DNA of 64,000 nucleotides, from the NCBI GenBank assembly GCA_965198005.1, contig CBDAOI010000004.1, positions 2,048,214 to 2,112,213 on the forward strand, read 5' to 3'. Numbering within the stretch: the first letter of the stretch is position 1; each line of letters begins with the position of its first letter. Made by a program: the position numbers and the translations under genes. This stretch comes from Spirochaetia bacterium (GTDB taxonomy: Bacteria > Spirochaetota > Spirochaetia > SZUA-6 > Bin103). Shown here piece by piece: positions 1-7,094 of this stretch. Below the pieces are notes generated by a model. That model did not search any database. It worked only from the letters and a program-made list of their open reading frames with translations, and was not told where the DNA came from.

Positions 1-196
1 CCTGGCGCGAAGCGTAGCTGATCGACCCGCCGTAGCGCGGCGCGAGAATCATCTCACCGGTGGTGGGATCGCGTACCATCTCCCGATCCGCCGCCGCTGC
101 CGGCTCCTCCTCGTCTGCGCCAGTGGCCCAGAGGCCGGTCGCGGTCAGAACTAGGACCAACGCAATCGCGAAGGTCCTTGCAAAAAATATCCTCAT
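1..196 (-). CDS. N-terminus of a secreted protein, probably a peptide/nickel ABC transporter substrate-binding protein; runs off the window
   Basis: Not in the ORF track. Minus-strand translation from ATG at 196 gives MRIFFARTFAIALVLVLTATGLWATGADEEEPAAAADREMVRDPTTGEMILAPRYGGSISYASR: signal peptide, acidic linker, then a PRYGG motif typical of family-5 solute-binding proteins. AAGGA SD upstream. Confidence 0.65.
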   Translation of the reverse strand, partial: MRIFFARTFAIALVLVLTATGLWATGADEEEPAAAADREMVRDPTTGEMILAPRYGGSISYASRQ

Positions 197-262
197 CGTT
201 TCTTCCTTGAATGTTATCTTGAGAGTATTGCGTAGCGGATTGCCGCTCCCTGGCTACTCTGA

Positions 263-297
263 CGCCCGCAACGCGGGCGCGCCCGCCAACGCGGGCG
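263..297. repeat. Two adjacent GC-rich palindromes
   Basis: cgcccgc-aac-gcgggcg (263-279) directly followed by cgcccgc-caac-gcgggcg (280-297), in the 5' region of the ABC gene. Confidence 0.7.
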
Positions 298-358
298 ACC
301 AGTCTGAGTCAAATTCACTAAAAGCGCGCGGCGTGTGACTCAACGGGTTCACCCCGGC

Positions 359-394
359 TCACGCCGCGCGCGCGTGCGGTTCTTTGAGTATCAT
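359..394 (-). CDS. Possible 11-aa upstream ORF (MILKEPHARAA)
   Basis: AAGGAGG Shine-Dalgarno (complement of 400-406) 5 nt before ATG at 394; TGA at 359. No other support. Confidence 0.3.
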   Translation of the reverse strand: MILKEPHARAA

Positions 395-686
395 TCGAAC
401 CTCCTTCTTCTCTAGATTTACGTCGGGATCTGCGTTACAACGCCACGCGTGGCGGTGGTCTGAGCAGCAGTGAGTCTGAATGGCCGCCAACGCAGGCGGT
501 GGGTTTTGCGCGCAGTTAGTCGCGGGCGGGGATCCGGGACGGTTGCGGTCGCCTGGAAGGACGCGGGCGGCCAGCATGCCGGTTCGGCGATGGACCGAGC
601 GGGCGCCACCGATAGCTACGGCGGTGGTGAAGGCGACGGTGTGCGCGGGGTCGCGTACGGGGCGATCAGCCCGAGCGGTTAGTTGT

Positions 687-744
687 TTCTCGGTTTGAAA
701 AAGTGGGGGGGTATGATGCACCGGTCGCGTCACAGCGAACCGGT
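687..744 (+). repeat. Left flanking direct repeat of the tandem array
   Basis: ttctcggt...agtgggggggtatgatgcaccggtcgcgtcacagcgaaccggt aligns with 1615-1674 ttctcggt...agtggtggtggtaggatgcaccggctacgttaccgctaaccggt. Confidence 0.7.
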
Positions 745-1610
745 CACTGCGCTGCCTGTCATCGTGACGCTTCATGACCATCCGTCGAACCCCAAGTGAG
801 GCACGCTAGCATAGGCGCGGCGCGCCGTCAACGACTCGTGGGGGTCACCGGGGTGAGCGAAGGTCACCGGCAACCCGTCACTGCGCTGACTGTCATCATG
901 GCGCTTCATCGGCATCCGTCGCCCCAGGCCAGGCATGATAGCGTGGGCGCGACCACCCTTTCAACCACTCGGAGGTCACCGAACATGACCGGCCACCGGC
1001 CACTGCGCTGACTGTCGTCATGGCGCTTCATCTCCGATCCGTCCGACCCCAGGCGAGGCAAGCTTGCTATGGACGCGACCACCCGGTCAACCACTCGGAA
1101 CTCACCAAACGTGAGCGCCAACCGGTCACTGCGCTGACTGTCATCATGGCGCTTCATCGGCATCCGTCGACCCCAAGCCAGGCATGATAGCGTGGGCGCG
1201 GCGCACTGTCAACGACTCGGAGCTCACCAAACGTGACCGCCAACCGGCCACTGCGCTGACTGTCATCATGGCGTTTCATCACCGTTCCATCGGACCCCAA
1301 GCGAAGCAAGCTTGCTCTGGACGCGGCCACCCTGTCAACGACTCGGACGTCACCGACCGTGACCGCCAACCGGTCACTGCGCTGACTGTCGTCATGGCGC
1401 GTCATCATCGATCGGTCGAACCCCAAGCGAGGCAAGCATGCTATGGACGCGACCAGCCTGTCAACGACTCGGAGGTGACCGACCCTGACCGCCAGCCGGT
1501 CACTGCGCTGACTGTCATCACGGCGCTTCATCATCGATCCGTCGAACCCCAGACGAGGCAAGCTTGCTATGGACGCGGCCATCCTGTCAACGACTCGGAC
1601 GTCATCGGCA
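745..1610. repeat. Tandem array of seven diverged 122-134 bp units, probably non-coding
   Basis: Anchor cactgcgctg at 745, 879, 1001, 1127, 1249, 1375, 1501 (periods 134, 122, 126, 122, 126, 126). Shared blocks: ctgactgtcatcatggcgcttcatc, cccc(a/ag)gcgaggca, tcaac(g/c)actcgg, gtgacc...ggtcac. Confidence 0.92.
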
Positions 1611-1614
1611 GCAG

Positions 1615-1674
1615 TTCTCGGTGAACGGGTAGTGGTGGTGGTAGGATGCACCGGCTACGTTACCGCTAACCGGT
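1615..1674 (+). repeat. Right flanking direct repeat of the tandem array
   Basis: Matches 687-744; core ggta(t/g)gatgcaccgg...cgt.ac.gc.aaccggt has the same 35-nt length in both copies (710-744 and 1640-1674). Confidence 0.7.
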
Positions 1675-2273
1675 GGGAGCGCTGGGACGTGTCGTCACGC
1701 ATCGCGGTGCCCGTGAGAACGCAGTCTGCCGCACGCGCGGCAAACAGTCAAGCGGGCATTCAGGTGCCCCCGCCAGCCGGTGGGAACTCTCCCACACGAT
1801 CGCCTCATGCCTCGCTCCGCTCCGCGGCCAGCCACTCACCGAGACTAACAGCACAATGAGGGTTGTAAGGCTTATTCCGGCGGTTGTCAACCTAAATTCG
1901 GTGACGTGGATGGGACCCGTTCGGCATCTGCTTCCCTCGCGCCCCCTTCCGTAGAGCTATCTGCTTACTCTGTCATAAAATACCGAACACTGCCCGCGTC
2001 CCTTCATCCCCAAGAATAGTTCAGTCGATTGCCCTGCGAGGGGTCGGAGGTGGCGGTGGGCGACCCGGCACAGGCAGCGTCGTGTGCTCAGCTGGCAGGG
2101 CGCGCCGGCTGACCCACACCGGAGCCCAGGGTGGAGCCGTGCACCAAGCGCCTGCTGGCGGCGCAGGGAGCACACCAGCCCCCCGGCCAGGTCTCCCGGC
2201 GCGGTTACCCGGACGCGGTATGCGCGGTACCCGGTCCGACGCAGGCACTAATCAGGGATGATAACGTTCAGCG

Positions 2274-3540
2274 CTACCCGGACAGCGGCTGCGGCGGCGA
2301 GTTCATCCGCACCAGCACCTGGTCCCACGACGGGAACAGGAATAGCCGAAACGTGGCGCGGACCGCGCCCCAGAACTCCCGGCGCGACCCGAACCCAGCC
2401 CGCACCTGCTGATACAGACCGTCCACCAGCTCGAATATCCGGTGCATGAAATAGGCCAGCAGATTGAGCACGAAGAACGCCTCCGACAAGTACTTGTCAC
2501 CGTGGCCGAAGTTGTGCTCCAGGTGGTAGCCCTGGTTCTTCAGCGTATCGAACCCCTCGTTCTCGATCTTCCAGCGTGCTCGTCCCGCACGCACGATCCG
2601 CGCTACGCTGCCAGCGGTGGGCACCAAGTCGGTCACCCAGGCGTTGTGACAGGTGGTCGTGCCGGCCCGTACGATGCGGTAGTGCACGAAGTTGATCTTG
2701 GGACTGCGGGGCTTGCCGTTCAGCGGCACCCCGGTAACCCACTCGTATTCATGCCGGTCCCCGGTCGCGTCGATGGTGCCGCAGTGGTCCAGCAGCCGAC
2801 CGCGGCGCAGCCCTTCGATATCCTGGTACAGGCTGGTGTGATCCTCCGGCTTGGCCACCAGCAGAAACGAGAAGCGGGCGGCGCGTACCTGTTCGATGAA
2901 CGGTTGCTTGGAGTACGGACTATCGGCGACGATCACCGCAGCCAGCCGGGGATGGTCGTTACGGATGCGCTGCAAGGCACGGTAGCCGGCTTTTATTTCA
3001 CAGTCCTGCTTGCGGCGTTTGGCATTCTTGGCGCCAGAGTCATCGGCGTTGTGAATGAACCCGGGAGCCAACGGCAGCACCTGCCGCTACGCACGATGTC
3101 GGGGTGGACGATGGCGGTCTGCAGGATGTCGTGGTGGTAGCGTACGGTGCCGTTCTTGGTGGCGGTCAGACAGCACTCACAGTTCACCTTGTACGAGCTG
3201 AAGTACTGGGAGCCGTCCATGGTGATGAGATAGCGACCGTCGAGGAACTGATAGTGCTGCAGCCATTTGGCGTCCTGCATGCGCCCTATCCAGTCGCCGA
3301 AGCAGTCGAGCAGCGGTTCATAGTCATGGCTGTCGAGCAGATCGCGGAACTGGGAGTCGGCAGGGATCTGAGCGACCCCAAACGTAGCGTTGAGCTTGTT
3401 GGTGCGGAGTTGGTCCTGGAAGCGGCGTTGGAACTCCAGCACGGAAGGGTCTTGGAGGAAAAACAAGGCGAAAGCACACACGTAGCAATCCTGCAGGGAG
3501 TACCGGACCTTGCTGTTTCCAGCCAGCCGCCGTTTCCAAA
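2274..3540 (-). pseudogene. ISNCY-type (IS4-like DDE) transposase, frameshifted
   Basis: Split over ORFs 2993-3481 and 2274-3080. Motifs KVRYSLQDC..AFALFFLQDPS, ITMDGSQYFSS, KQDCEIKA, RARWKIENEGFDTLKNQGYHLEHNFGHG. Frame break near 3089-3096. 5' limit uncertain; no start codon found. Confidence 0.8.
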
Positions 3541-3627
3541 CCGTGCCAAGCAGGGTTGCCAGCGCGTGCCAGCCTGTGATGCTGGTGTCCGCCAGCGGCG
3601 AACGCCAGCGGTGCCGGCTGTCGCGGT

Positions 3628-4389
3628 TTAGTCGTGGAGTTCATCGGCAACGATGTTGGTGGAGTCGATGATGCTGATGTCGTTGGCGACGGCGTGCAGG
3701 ATGGAGCGATAGCAGACGGCGTTGACCAAGCGCGGCACACCACCGGCGTGGCGGTGAATGTCAGCTTTGGCATCATCGGCGAAGATCGAGGCAGGGCGGC
3801 CACAGCGGACGGTGTGGTGGTCGATGTAGCGACAGGTCTCCTCCAGAGAGCCATGGCCGGCATGTGATAGGAGATACGGATGCGCTGGCGCAAGGAAGCG
3901 AAGGAAACATATCTGAGCAACTCGCGCAGCTCGGGTTGGCCGGCGAGGACGAAGGTGATGGAGTTTTTGGTGTCGAAGGCGAAGTTGACCATGTTCTTGA
4001 TGGCCGTCAGGGCGGTGGCCGCAAGGTCCTGAGCATCGTCGAGGATGACTAGTGGTTTCTTGGTCAGCTCGGGGATGGTCTTGAAGAACAGCTGCTTGGC
4101 CTGGCCGGCGAAGAACGGCGGATCGATCTTCAACTCATCGAGGATTGCCTTGTAGAGCTGGGCTTCCGAGAGGCCGGCGCCGCGGACGTAGAGGGGGCGG
4201 TAGCGGTTGCCGTCGAGTTCGCTGACGAAGGCGGCGAGGGCGACCGACTTGCCGCAACCGATGGGGCCGGTGAGGAGCAGGAGATCCTCGTCGGCGACGC
4301 CGAAGGAGAGGCGGGAGAGCGCCTCCTGATGGGCGGTGGAGGGGAACGTGTCGGCGGGCTGGAACGGTGCTTGCCGAGGACGTGATCAT
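3628..4389 (-). pseudogene. ExeA-like AAA ATPase (IstB/TnsC-type transposition helper), two frameshifts
   Basis: Reconstructed: ...PFQPADTFPSTAHQEALSRL...LLLTGPIGCGKS (Walker A)...PLVILDDAQDL (Walker B)...FVLAGQPEL...LRQRI; then in another frame LEETCRYIDHH...GGVPRLVNAVC...DELHD-stop at 3628. Frame breaks near 4365 and 3846-3850. Confidence 0.8.
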
Positions 4390-5462
4390 GCATCTGCATC
4401 GTGGTGCTCCTTGGGGGTAGTGCGGAACTGGCTGAACGAAGTCTGGTTACGGTCGCGAAGCCGGGCGTGGTGCTGCTCGCGCAGGCGGGTGAAGTAGTCC
4501 CGGGCGGCGGCCGACACCTCAGGCGGCTTGGCGCGGGACTCCTCGGGGACCGCCGGCACCTGTGTGGTGACCTGTTTGGAGGCGCTGGTGGTCTCCAGCA
4601 GGCCGCCGCCGGGGTCGTAGATGGCAAGCTGGGCGAGGTCGTAGGGGTCGAAGCGGACCTCGACGACGCTGCCATGGGGGACGCTGGTGACGGGGTATTG
4701 GTTGCCGTGCAGCTTGATCCTGCCATACTTGGTGACGGTGCGCCGTTCGCGCCACAGGAACAGGGCGTTGAAGGTCTCCAGATCGGTGATCCGGCGGTGG
4801 TCGGCGGGCAGCCCGTCGCGGAAACGAGCATCGGGACTCTGGCCGGTGGCTGAGTGGACGCGAACGTTGTATTCGAGATCCATCCAGGCCCAGAAGGCGG
4901 AGTTCAGTTCATCGAGGGTACGCATCCCGGCGACTTGGGCCTCGCGTTGGAACTGGTTCTTGATGATCTTGTTGGCGGCCTCGACCTTGCCCTTGCAATA
5001 ACTGCGCGAGTCTTCAGCGAGCATGCGGTAGCGGACCGCCTGGGTGAGGCCCTGCTCGGCCAGGAAGCGGTAGATGGTGCGATCTGAGATGCGTTTGATC
5101 TTGCTGCCCAACTGATCGTCGGTGGCGAGCAGCTTGCGCAGTTGGGGGACGCTCCTGGTGGGCAGCTCGTTGACCAGCGCGAGGAGCTTGGCGCGCAGCC
5201 CAGGATCGTGGACGCGCGGCGAGGTGGGCCGCGGCCGGTAGAACAGCAGCCCCCGGGGGCCCTTCTTGCGATAGCGGTGGAGGTAGCCTCTGATGGTGCG
5301 CTCCCCAACCCGATGCTGCTCGCAGTAGCGCCGGCGTTCCGCGCGTTTGTCGGCGTTCCCGATGTGCGGGTCGAGCAGCATCTCGACCAAGCGCAGGCGT
5401 TCGTCAAATGCCTCCATGGCCGCGTCCGGGATCTGCTCCCAAGGGAAGTCGCCGAGGCTCAT
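4386..5462 (-). pseudogene. Mu/IstA-like DDE transposase with an in-frame internal deletion
   Basis: N-terminal HTH region (GERTIRGYLHRYRKKG, ISDRTIYRFL) joins directly to the third-acidic-residue motif (KGKVEAANK). EYNVRVHSATGQSP and the Mu-transposase C-terminal domain (RTVTKYGRIKLHGNQY...VEVRFDPYDL) follow. ATGA overlaps with both neighbours. Confidence 0.78.
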
Positions 5463-6052
5463 TCGAGGTCCTCGCGCTCGCCGACGACGGCCCGCCGGCA
5501 CAGCCAATCGCGGTACTCGCTGGTGAGCTCGTCGAGGGACAGGCGCGGCTGCTCAGCGTACAGCTCACGCAGGCGCTCGACCTCCTCGGCGAGCTTCTGC
5601 AGCAGCACCTCGCCGGCTACCTCCAGGTGGTGTGAATCGAGCGGCTGCCACGGCTCGGGAGTGAGGAACAACTCCAGCACCCAGTCACAGAGAAACTGCA
5701 ACCGGTCGCCGATCAGCTGCAGCAGCTGGGAGAGTTCATCGAACCCGCCCAGCACGCACTGGGGAGCATCGATGAGCTGGCTCAGAATGTTCTCCCGCAC
5801 CAGCGCCGCCTGGCGGCTGAAGATCGACCCCCGAGTGTGGTCGGCGTGCAGCAACGCCGTCGCATCGCTGCTGCGGTAGCCAGCCAGGGCACGCCACAGA
5901 TCGCGCTCATCGGCGCTCCTGCGCCGGCAATGCTCCAGCAACCAGTCGCGGCGGCGTGGCGGTGGCGTCGGTTCGGTCAAGATCCGATGAAAGAGCAGCA
6001 GCAGCTCTTCCAGCTGCGCCAAACGGTCGGGGGAAACCAGTAGTTGATCCAC
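5459..6052 (-). CDS. Hypothetical alpha-helical protein of the transposon
   Basis: Intact ORF (track 5459-6091). GGAGG SD favours GTG at 6052. Stop overlaps the transposase start (ATGA). Confidence 0.6.
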   Translation of the reverse strand: MDQLLVSPDRLAQLEELLLLFHRILTEPTPPPRRRDWLLEHCRRRSADERDLWRALAGYRSSDATALLHADHTRGSIFSRQAALVRENILSQLIDAPQCVLGGFDELSQLLQLIGDRLQFLCDWVLELFLTPEPWQPLDSHHLEVAGEVLLQKLAEEVERLRELYAEQPRLSLDELTSEYRDWLCRRAVVGEREDLE

Positions 6053-6077
6053 TTTGATGCCTCCTGTGGGTGGATGC

Positions 6078-6749
6078 TTAAGTGGTATCAAACCAACAGC
6101 CGCCTCGAAATACTAGACTCAATGGAATCGGCGGGGGGCTCCGGGCGCGCTCCGCGACGTAGGCGAGGTGAACGCAGCCGATAACGGTGAACGCTACGGT
6201 GATACCGAGCGCGGCCTGTCTGGCCTTCTCCAGCGCGGCCACTGAGCGCCGCAACTGCGCCAGCGCATCTTCGCCCACGCGCACCGGTGGCAAGGCGGTG
6301 AACGGCGCCAGCTCGGCCACCCACTCGTTCACCTCCAGCAGCATCGCTGCGATGGTGTCGTCCACCCACAGCAGATGACGCGCTATGGTGCGCTCACAGG
6401 CGCTGCCGATCACCGCGTAGCCGTGGGCACGCGCGCTGCCGGCCGTGGGGTGCTTCTTCCGCAGCTCGAGCACCAGGTCGAGCCTGATGTTGCACTCGGG
6501 AATCACAAACCACGGCAGCATGCGTTTGGTGTACTGGGCGCCCGCTTCCCGCGCCCGCTCACAGATGATCACCACGATCAGGTGTTGGTGATTACTGCCG
6601 TCGGTGCACCGCACCAGGCGTTTGCAGTAGCAATGAATCACCACCGCATGGCTCTCCCCGCACAGCACGCAGGGACGCTTGCCGCCTTCTCTGATCAGGG
6701 ATTGGCGGTAGGCTTGAAAGTCGAAGCCGTCTAGTTCAGGATGATCCAG
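6078..6749 (-). CDS. DUF6431-like zinc-finger protein; 5' end damaged or non-canonical start
   Basis: CVLCGESH...IHCYCKRLVR...LIVVIICE...KRMLPWFVIP resembles the CxxC..H...R..C...LP.FL.P pattern of DUF6431 proteins that precede DDE integrase-ExeA pairs. Frame is open to 6749 and closed by an in-frame TAA just upstream. Confidence 0.5.
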   Translation of the reverse strand: MDHPELDGFDFQAYRQSLIREGGKRPCVLCGESHAVVIHCYCKRLVRCTDGSNHQHLIVVIICERAREAGAQYTKRMLPWFVIPECNIRLDLVLELRKKHPTAGSARAHGYAVIGSACERTIARHLLWVDDTIAAMLLEVNEWVAELAPFTALPPVRVGEDALAQLRRSVAALEKARQAALGITVAFTVIGCVHLAYVAERARSPPPIPLSLVFRGGCWFDTT

Positions 6750-7094
6750 CTTTTAGGTGGGGGTCACCGTTGTACCCGGAGTAAGTACTGGCGGTGGCCC
6801 CTATCTTTTTTCGTGATCTCCGGAACGCTTCCCGGACGAACCTATCCTACCCCCACTGGCGGATTTGTCCACATCTCGGAAATCTCACCTGGCGGGCAAC
6901 ACGCCTTGAAGGCATCGCGCGTTTCGAACACGCGAGCGTGGATCGCTGCCGGGTCGTGACCGCGGCGCCAAGGCTCTGACACTAGAAGCCTATCCCAGCC
7001 TACCACTACCACCGCCGCGTTGCCCGGCAGACTGACGCCCCGTCACCCGCGAATCAGCGACGCCGCCACGCGGCGTCCGCACTCAGCGTCGGTC

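Follow-up and report, generated by a model that had tools for sequence, protein, structure and literature searches.

The window analysed here, a stretch of 64,000 nucleotides (C4:2048214-2112213 of a 4.9-Mb, 66% GC, four-contig Spirochaetia MAG assembly), carries near its left end seven tandem units of 108-134 bp each (positions 745-1608), and the question raised by this locus is what such an array does and to which of its neighbours it belongs. An earlier note, made from the sequence, had considered a multi-copy structured RNA cassette, a protein-binding or decoy array and an amplified miniature element, and had placed the array at the edge of a defence island. The analysis points to the operon on the left: the array probably consists of seven head-to-tail copies of the distal promoter module and leader start of an SBP ABC-importer operon, whose start codon lies at window position 196 on the minus strand. 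Confidence is high in the structural identity of the units as tandem copies of a distal promoter and leader start; that several of them fire, and that their number tunes expression, we infer. The array is most likely one case of a genus-wide type of control region, variable in copy number, in this sponge-associated spirochaete.

The array itself, with the unit starts and the two subtypes described earlier, proved real by Tandem Repeats Finder, by alignment and by a repeat finder. Tandem Repeats Finder called one array (858-1604, period 126, 6.0 copies, 83% matches) together with higher-order periods of 248 and 374. Aligned at the start positions first proposed, the seven units have a mean column identity of 81%, and the repeat finder recovered seven of seven copies at spacings of 134, 122, 126, 122, 126, and 126 bp. 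The two 122-bp type-A units (879 and 1127) both contain ggcatgatagcgtgggcgcg, and the 126-bp type-B units have gcaagc(t/a)tgct in common. The features of the region are listed in Table 1.

Table 1. Features at the left end of the window, in window coordinates; arrows run in the operon sense.
Feature	Positions	Strand	Details
Family-5 SBP gene, 5' end (first 65 codons); first gene of ABC-importer operon	1-196	-	Pfam SBP_bac_5, E 3.5e-58
Proximal 5' UTR	197-404	-	Two CGCCCGC..GCGGGCG hairpins (263-297); ~70 genomic repeats
B leader module	405-704	-	Ends at distal anchor GCGGTTAGTTGTTTCTCGGTTTGAAAAAGT (plus-strand letters)
Homopolymer tract	705-711	-	G7 on plus strand = C7 in operon sense
L	712-745	-	TATGAT (operon sense ATCATA) and hairpin segment CACCGGTCGC-GTCACA-GCGAACCGGT; spanned by RNA contig of X9, 682-758
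U1, 134 bp	745-878	-	-35 TTGACG 831->826, 17 nt, -10 TAGCGT 808->803; leader-ORF ATG at 781/775
U2, 122 bp, type A	879-1000	-	TTGAAA 964->959, 18 nt, TATCAT 940->935; 10/12
U3, 126 bp, type B	1001-1126	-	TTGACC 1090->1085, 18 nt, CAAGCT 1066->1061, weak -10
U4, 122 bp, type A	1127-1248	-	TTGACA 1212->1207, 17 nt, TATCAT 1189->1184; 11/12
U5, 126 bp, type B	1249-1374	-	TTGACA 1338->1333, 18 nt, CAAGCT 1314->1309
U6, 126 bp	1375-1500	-	TTGACA 1464->1459, 18 nt, CATGCT 1440->1435
U7, cut at unit position 108	1501-1608	-	TTGACA 1590->1585, 18 nt, CAAGCT 1566->1561
L' segment, paralogous leader cut just after B-like start (GTTCACCGAGAACTGCTG)	1609-2244	-	7 copies at 92-98%
IS, DDE_Tnp_1 transposase split into two ORFs	2270-3515	-	Pfam E 1.8e-6; outside array

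The view that the array is non-coding is supported by the unit lengths: full units range from 104 to 149 bp, just 22 of 79 lengths are divisible by three, and two long ORFs had no Pfam family above cut-off. The same lengths rule out a decayed gene for a 42-aa repeat protein. A CRISPR array is likewise ruled out, as whole units are homologous and there are no spacers. Within the units, GGTCAC, GTGACC, and GGTCAC arms at unit positions ~100-126 plus 1-3 (e.g., 1348-1380) can form two mutually exclusive hairpins; compensatory pairs (GCTCAC/GTGAGC, GGTGA/TCACC) occur in some units, and other units lack pairing in this three-arm segment. An attenuator-like switch formed by the segment is possible, judging from these arms.

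What the units do carry is a promoter-like arrangement on the minus strand. According to a consensus scan of window positions 150-2300, only two sigma-70-like sites are present, both on that strand and both in type-A units: TTGACA-17-TATCAT (1212->1184, 11/12) and TTGAAA-18-TATCAT (964->935, 10/12). Shuffles in this window scan gave a mean of 0.4 promoter-like sites. Every unit has a conserved 'GTCAAC' box, which is a -35 hexamer in reverse complement. Genome-wide, a sigma-70-type layout of TTGAC[A/G/C], a spacer of 16-18 nt and an nAnnnT hexamer is present on the strand of the downstream gene (minus in the window) in 110 of 114 units. In this family-wide comparison, the best plus-strand score per unit is at most 8/12, and 87% of shuffles lack any site. 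The -35 is TTGACA in 75 units and TTGACG in 23. At least 15 different -10 hexamers occur, for instance CAAGCT (40 units), TAGCGT (28), TATCAT (10), and GAGAGT (7), and all of them keep A2 and T6; these two positions are retained even though the hexamers and the segment between -35 and -10 are the most variable part of the unit. Units of related genomes conform in 27 of 29 cases. Leaders with a single unit have the same layout, e.g., C4:2350925, in which TTGACG-16-TATACT is followed by the reverse complement of unit positions 47-1, a hairpin, ATTCTA, a C tract, and B. Four of the seven window units have only nAnnnT -10 hexamers and, on this ground, may be silent.

Downstream of the operon-nearest unit, the leader can be followed to the SBP gene. 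The full SBP, read from the genome, has 602 aa; the gene after it encodes a BPD_transp_1 permease (Pfam), and ABC permeases follow the SBP. Its first ~50 codons belong to a conserved 5' cassette: window positions 26-196 are repeated ~30-90 times in the genome, and the SBP start with the proximal 5' UTR (26-400) ~70 times. The proximal 5' UTR has the highest RNA/DNA ratio of the leader. It also contains an 11-codon ORF, MILKEPHARAA (minus strand, 394->359), behind a strong GAAGGAGG ribosome-binding site, and many leaders keep this ORF. The B module (400-700) has about 40 genomic repeats, and its distal anchor is present in 51 copies; the anchor GCGGTTAGTTGTTTCTCGGTTCGAAAAAGT terminates all 51 B-module copies. 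B was aligned in 22 copies, and a protein gene in this module was ruled out, since the third codon position is the least variable.

Beyond the anchor, 49 of 51 B copies continue with a G run of 4-28, and nine of them have (GT)3-8 in addition. The distal modules after this run are alternatives to one another, and the module of L plus units is one of them. The G/C tract is the exact point where these alternative distal modules, at least four of them, are attached; from its position, the tract may also be a recombination hot spot, and the tract lengths may be partly long-read assembly error. In the operon sense, the 45-nt conserved start of the unit reads ATG AAG CGC CAT GAT GAC AGT CAG CGC AGT, or MKRHDDSQRS, and the ORF that it opens in the operon-nearest unit passes the C tract as a proline run. 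Among 32 leaders, this ORF ends at the anchor TAA in 13 (...FFEPRNN), 26 nt into the anchor in 4 and 150-490 nt into B in 12, and therefore all three reading frames occur among the paralogues. A slippage-prone repeat within a small upstream ORF is one trait of leaders with leader-peptide phase variation or attenuation, and this trait is found here. Codon-position analysis of the ORF start gave no clear codon periodicity or coding signal, so that MKRHDD... is best called a predicted leader ORF, its translation not being proven by codon-position statistics. A window scan found no canonical terminator after L.

The leader belongs to a large family of paralogues. In total, 83 paralogous SBP operon starts of family 5 are 75-99% identical in DNA over the first ~50 codons and the leader. 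At the loci compared, the SBP bodies are merely 40-55% identical at the protein level, whereas the cassette of promoter, leader and signal peptide is 90-99% identical; the DNA similarity begins ~50 codons into the SBP gene and extends via the leader into the units. Conserved 5' DNA on divergent SBP bodies means that the 5' cassette has been homogenised between non-orthologous operons, and the shared starts point to gene conversion or a portable 5' cassette, as far as sequence comparison can tell.

The search of this genome and its relatives for the unit, which the earlier note had proposed, shows how closely the arrays are tied to these operons. A whole-genome nhmmer search with an HMM built from the seven units gave 142 matches, spread over 50 loci whose arrays hold one to seven units. 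Of 11 genomes of the genus, 8 have the family, as against 0 of 30 outside it, and the arrays of the relatives have the same layout as that of the window. Of the 83 SBP start-region copies, 38 have one to seven units at most 2.5 kb upstream. Seen from the units, an SBP start lies downstream of the unit promoters at 39 of 50 loci and none of the loci faces away, the distance from units to SBP ATG being mostly 446-885 bp; some of the remaining 11 loci adjoin a more divergent SBP gene. Fixed position and orientation at SBP operons tie the arrays to the operon control region and argue against a mobile element or a component of the defence island; indeed, no link to that island was found, and position and orientation point to the importer operon on the left. 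As for an amplified miniature element, the unit is indeed amplified, but the fixed position of the arrays relative to SBP genes argues against mobility. A mobile element was rejected on this position together with the lack of terminal inverted repeats at the one locus examined for them. The orientation also rules out dispersed repeats of the REP/BIME, BOX or MIRU kind, so that the array is, as had been supposed, neither a CRISPR array nor a short REP.

The arrays also vary between loci and species. The order of a U1-type unit (133 bp), type A (121-122 bp) and type B (126 bp) recurs in many arrays and in other species, and therefore arrays have been passed between loci as blocks and then changed. 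For instance, over L and U1-U3 the leader at C4:408989-409698 matches that of the window at 99% identity but has five units vs seven, and a leader from another species is 97% identical over 386 nt and has about 2.4 units.

On the right, the array ends against a different element. The earlier note had described the units as bracketed by flanking repeats, L and L', containing TATGAT and TAGGAT. The likeness holds (75% over 48 nt between 707-754 and 1637-1684, by the repeat finder), and both boxes are where they were said to be, at 712-717 and 1643-1648. The bracketing does not, as L' forms the initial ~60 nt of a distinct repeated segment of ~640 bp (1609-2244) with copies of its own, which rules it out as a terminus or terminal repeat of the array. 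The segment has a sharp left boundary at 1609 and contains a C-rich stretch, ATCCTA, a hairpin, TTGACT (1751->1746), 17 nt, and CAGACT (1728->1723), with ~490 bp of conserved DNA upstream of this promoter motif. It resembles a truncated leader that has changed place, at times together with the IS at 2270-3515. The sharp left end falls at GCAGTTCTCGG in all seven copies, and the segment adjoins a cut unit three times (at unit positions 60, 106, and 108).

The array is transcribed, as had been predicted. Runs containing the sequence include sponge metagenomes and metatranscriptomes; the RNA data are unstranded Logan contigs, for which RNA depth was compared with DNA depth and the strand of the RNA is deduced. 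The IS at 2270-3515, of which the genome has at least 15 copies, served as a multi-copy untranscribed control. With depths summed over all paralogues and several related strains, which masks individual starts within the units, single-copy genes of the organism lie at ~5-15 in DNA run X1, the arrays at 800-2600 and the IS at ~1400-2200; in RNA runs, array depth is 50-1080 vs 0-36 for the IS. The RNA/DNA depth ratio is 0.1-0.75 for arrays vs about 0-0.02 for the IS at equal DNA depth, and the near-silence of the IS at like DNA depth means that DNA contamination does not explain the array signal. At the intact array L007, RNA covers the units and is at 0 on the conserved 1.2 kb past the array end, where DNA depth is 200-1000. 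In the single-unit leader L043, the unique parts of the operon had no RNA in the runs used. A type III toxin-antitoxin RNA array was ruled out, given that no ORF recurs after arrays and the segment past the array is untranscribed.

Individual contigs indicate how the transcripts run. An RNA contig of X9 (682-758) joins B to U1 across the G tract, TATGAT, and the hairpin, and therefore TATGAT lies inside a transcript. An RNA contig of X14 (1609-1699) includes both the TAGGAT box and the hairpin of L' and ends at ~1700; no RNA was seen right of ~1703 in the L' segment, though DNA depth continues. The end of this contig is ~15 nt short of the start (near 1716) predicted from TTGACT-17-CAGACT (1751->1723), the paralogous L' promoter, and other RNA contigs continue leftward from 1609 into differing flanks. 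A common right edge at a promoter with varied continuations on the left fits minus-strand transcription. TATGAT and TAGGAT, which had been likened to -10 boxes, are thus probably not plus-strand -10 boxes, as RNA contigs run across them and there is no -35 at a fixed distance. RNA per DNA copy, summed over loci, is lower over B than over the arrays and proximal UTR (3-4x in X14, 10-50x in X8); this dip could stem from attenuation beyond L, from a further promoter close to the proximal UTR, or from the sets of loci being different.

These data also bear on the idea that the product of the array is an RNA in its own right. Such a plus-strand non-coding repeat RNA would be transcribed away from the operon off a phase-variable promoter (G tract and TATGAT) and either be processed into small RNAs or act as a sponge that takes up an RNA-binding protein. 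It could draw on the TATGAT, TAGGAT, or TAGAAT that comes right after the variable G tract in ~20 leaders, on array transcription being bounded near L and the array end, and on the amount of array RNA per DNA copy in X8, 10-50x that of the adjoining B module. Nevertheless, we consider it decidedly unlikely: with a G tract of 4-28 there is no fixed-distance -35, RNA contigs extend over the supposed -10 boxes as well as the DNA lying upstream, and the minus-strand TTGACA and nAnnnT at 16-18 nt in each unit would be left unexplained. Nor did the array behave as the multi-copy structured RNA cassette that had been suggested. Rfam gave no match for window positions 1-4000 even at a permissive threshold (cmscan, E<=1); RNAalifold of 76 distinct units yielded just 6-8 pairs and energies of -2.6 kcal/mol for one strand and -3.0 for the other; and single-strand folds of the whole region had no modular structure, a brute-force pair scan of units being too noisy for use. 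A plus-strand RNA would lack conserved secondary structure, an Rfam match and a terminator at the array end. An AbcR-like mode of action was considered as well, but unit RNA paired with the SBP leader no better than shuffled sequence did.

The minus-strand motifs could, on the other hand, be debris. If the array were a neutral minisatellite of functionless duplicated promoter and leader pieces among ~80 paralogous leaders, with one promoter or an outside promoter driving the operon, the poor -10 of many units (CAAGCT in 40 of 114), the frequent cutting of arrays by IS or leader fragments, the erratic copy number, and a region rich in IS and group II introns would all be expected. It would not be expected that the -35 box and A2 and T6 of the -10 are retained in 110 of 114 units despite the variable stretch between them, that the order of U1, type A, and type B recurs across arrays and species, or that about half of the leaders keep arrays in at least six related genomes, and this account is held to be unlikely. 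An array of DNA operators or decoys, in which the palindrome TGACTGTCA and GTCAC motifs spaced about one helical turn apart bind a regulator and transcription is incidental, agrees with the near invariance of TGACTGTCA among units and with the 2-5 GTCACC motifs per unit, which change in copy number; however, no cognate regulator gene was found adjoining the arrays, and the palindrome sits in the segment predicted to be transcribed and to open the ORF. As a sole account it is highly improbable, and it is compatible with the main explanation more than it is an alternative to it.

Under the promoter-array explanation, each unit would read, in operon sense, as a -35 (TTGAC[A/G/C]), a 17-18 nt spacer, a -10 of variable quality, and a predicted transcription start, then a 45-nt conserved segment with the palindrome TGACAGTCA and the putative small ORF start M(K/T)RHDDSQRS, and last the GGTCAC/GTGACC hairpin segment. 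The operon-nearest unit would continue into the L hairpin, a presumably hypermutable C tract, the ~300-nt B leader, the proximal 5' UTR, and the SBP gene. RNA polymerase would start at several units, chiefly the near-consensus ones, and transcripts would then pass through the units that follow and enter the leader. Unequal recombination among the units would alter both the number of promoters and the length of the leader, and unit number, jointly with the C tract of the leader ORF, could tune each importer operon separately.

No description of this repeat family was found in the literature, and parts of the proposed arrangement have counterparts elsewhere. Tandem promoters in front of one operon are exemplified by rrn P1/P2. 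Another example is the E. coli kps cluster, with three PR1 promoters (PMC5738388). With such systems the array would share serial sigma-70-type promoters on one strand, ahead of one operon, with upstream transcripts reading through. By contrast, the predicted promoters here are all copies of a single 122-134-bp repeat, of which an operon has as many as seven; paralogues and species differ in this number, and every copy adds a leader-ORF start and a hairpin. The pil1 locus of Streptococcus gallolyticus reportedly undergoes leader-peptide phase variation, in which a slippage-prone repeat in a small upstream ORF, itself part of a long leader, determines in what frame that ORF terminates. The present leaders similarly have a slippage-prone C tract of 4-28 in the leader ORF, with three frames among paralogues. 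In contrast to pil1, the repeat is a homopolymer and the tandem promoter units have no counterpart; the likeness rests on the ORF and the tract, not on terminator logic.

In the variable-lipoprotein families vlp and vsp of Mycoplasma, a conserved 5' region with a homopolymer tract is joined to divergent coding bodies. The same holds here for the promoter/leader/signal-peptide cassette, with a homopolymer in each copy, but the proteins are nutrient-binding ABC-importer proteins and not surface antigens, the organism is a high-GC spirochaete, and the tract is in the leader, not between -35 and -10. BOX of Streptococcus pneumoniae (boxA-boxB(n)-boxC) and mycobacterial MIRU-VNTR are modular intergenic repeats with variable internal units at tens of loci, and the array resembles them in its variable number of internal units, its dispersal over tens of loci and its transcription with neighbours. 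To our knowledge, BOX and MIRU elements are not bound to one gene family or orientation and are not promoters, whereas the units described here have full promoter motifs and face the SBP operon at most of their loci. By analogy with these systems, the array may be a new combination of tandem promoters, a minisatellite, and pil1-kind leader-ORF phase variation on a vlp-like 5' cassette.

For annotation, such arrays are to be treated as operon control regions, not as small-RNA genes, CRISPR-like arrays, or defence elements. If the units fire, promoter dosage would be set by a minisatellite, with one to seven full promoters per operon at dozens of importers in an uncultured sponge symbiont, there would be a simple, testable tie between repeat number and expression, and the logic of contingency loci, known mainly from the surface antigens of pathogens, would extend to nutrient uptake in a mutualist. 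A broader proposal, put forward tentatively and more readily doubted than accepted, is that ~80 paralogous importer operons each have a portable 5' cassette (units, leader, and signal peptide) that is homogenised among them and holds two independent hypermutable dials: one is how many units there are and of which type, the other how long the C tract is. Were this so, a clonal symbiont population would have a combinatorial repertoire of nutrient-uptake states.

Other elements were noted in and around the leaders. In several leaders, ORFs resembling group II intron reverse transcriptases (MNGAGKSDRP...; judged by eye) lie between B and the SBP gene; the loci in question are at G000 C4:358-359 kb, 379-381 kb, and 409-412 kb, where the array is displaced ~2 kb from the operon. 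Beyond many arrays, on their distal side, lies a conserved segment of ~400 bp (at L007:1954-2400 and at 10 further loci) with a 14-bp perfect hairpin, CCACCCGTGGCGCC-ATCCCT-GGCGCCACGGGTGG, which is multi-copy in DNA and absent from RNA. In the window, repeated elements are piled up at 2270-6903: the IS at 2270-3515 is followed by a ~1.5-kb element (3514-5003, about 7 copies), which carries an AAA_22 ATPase fragment, and by a 1.9-kb element at 5002-6903 with 6 copies.
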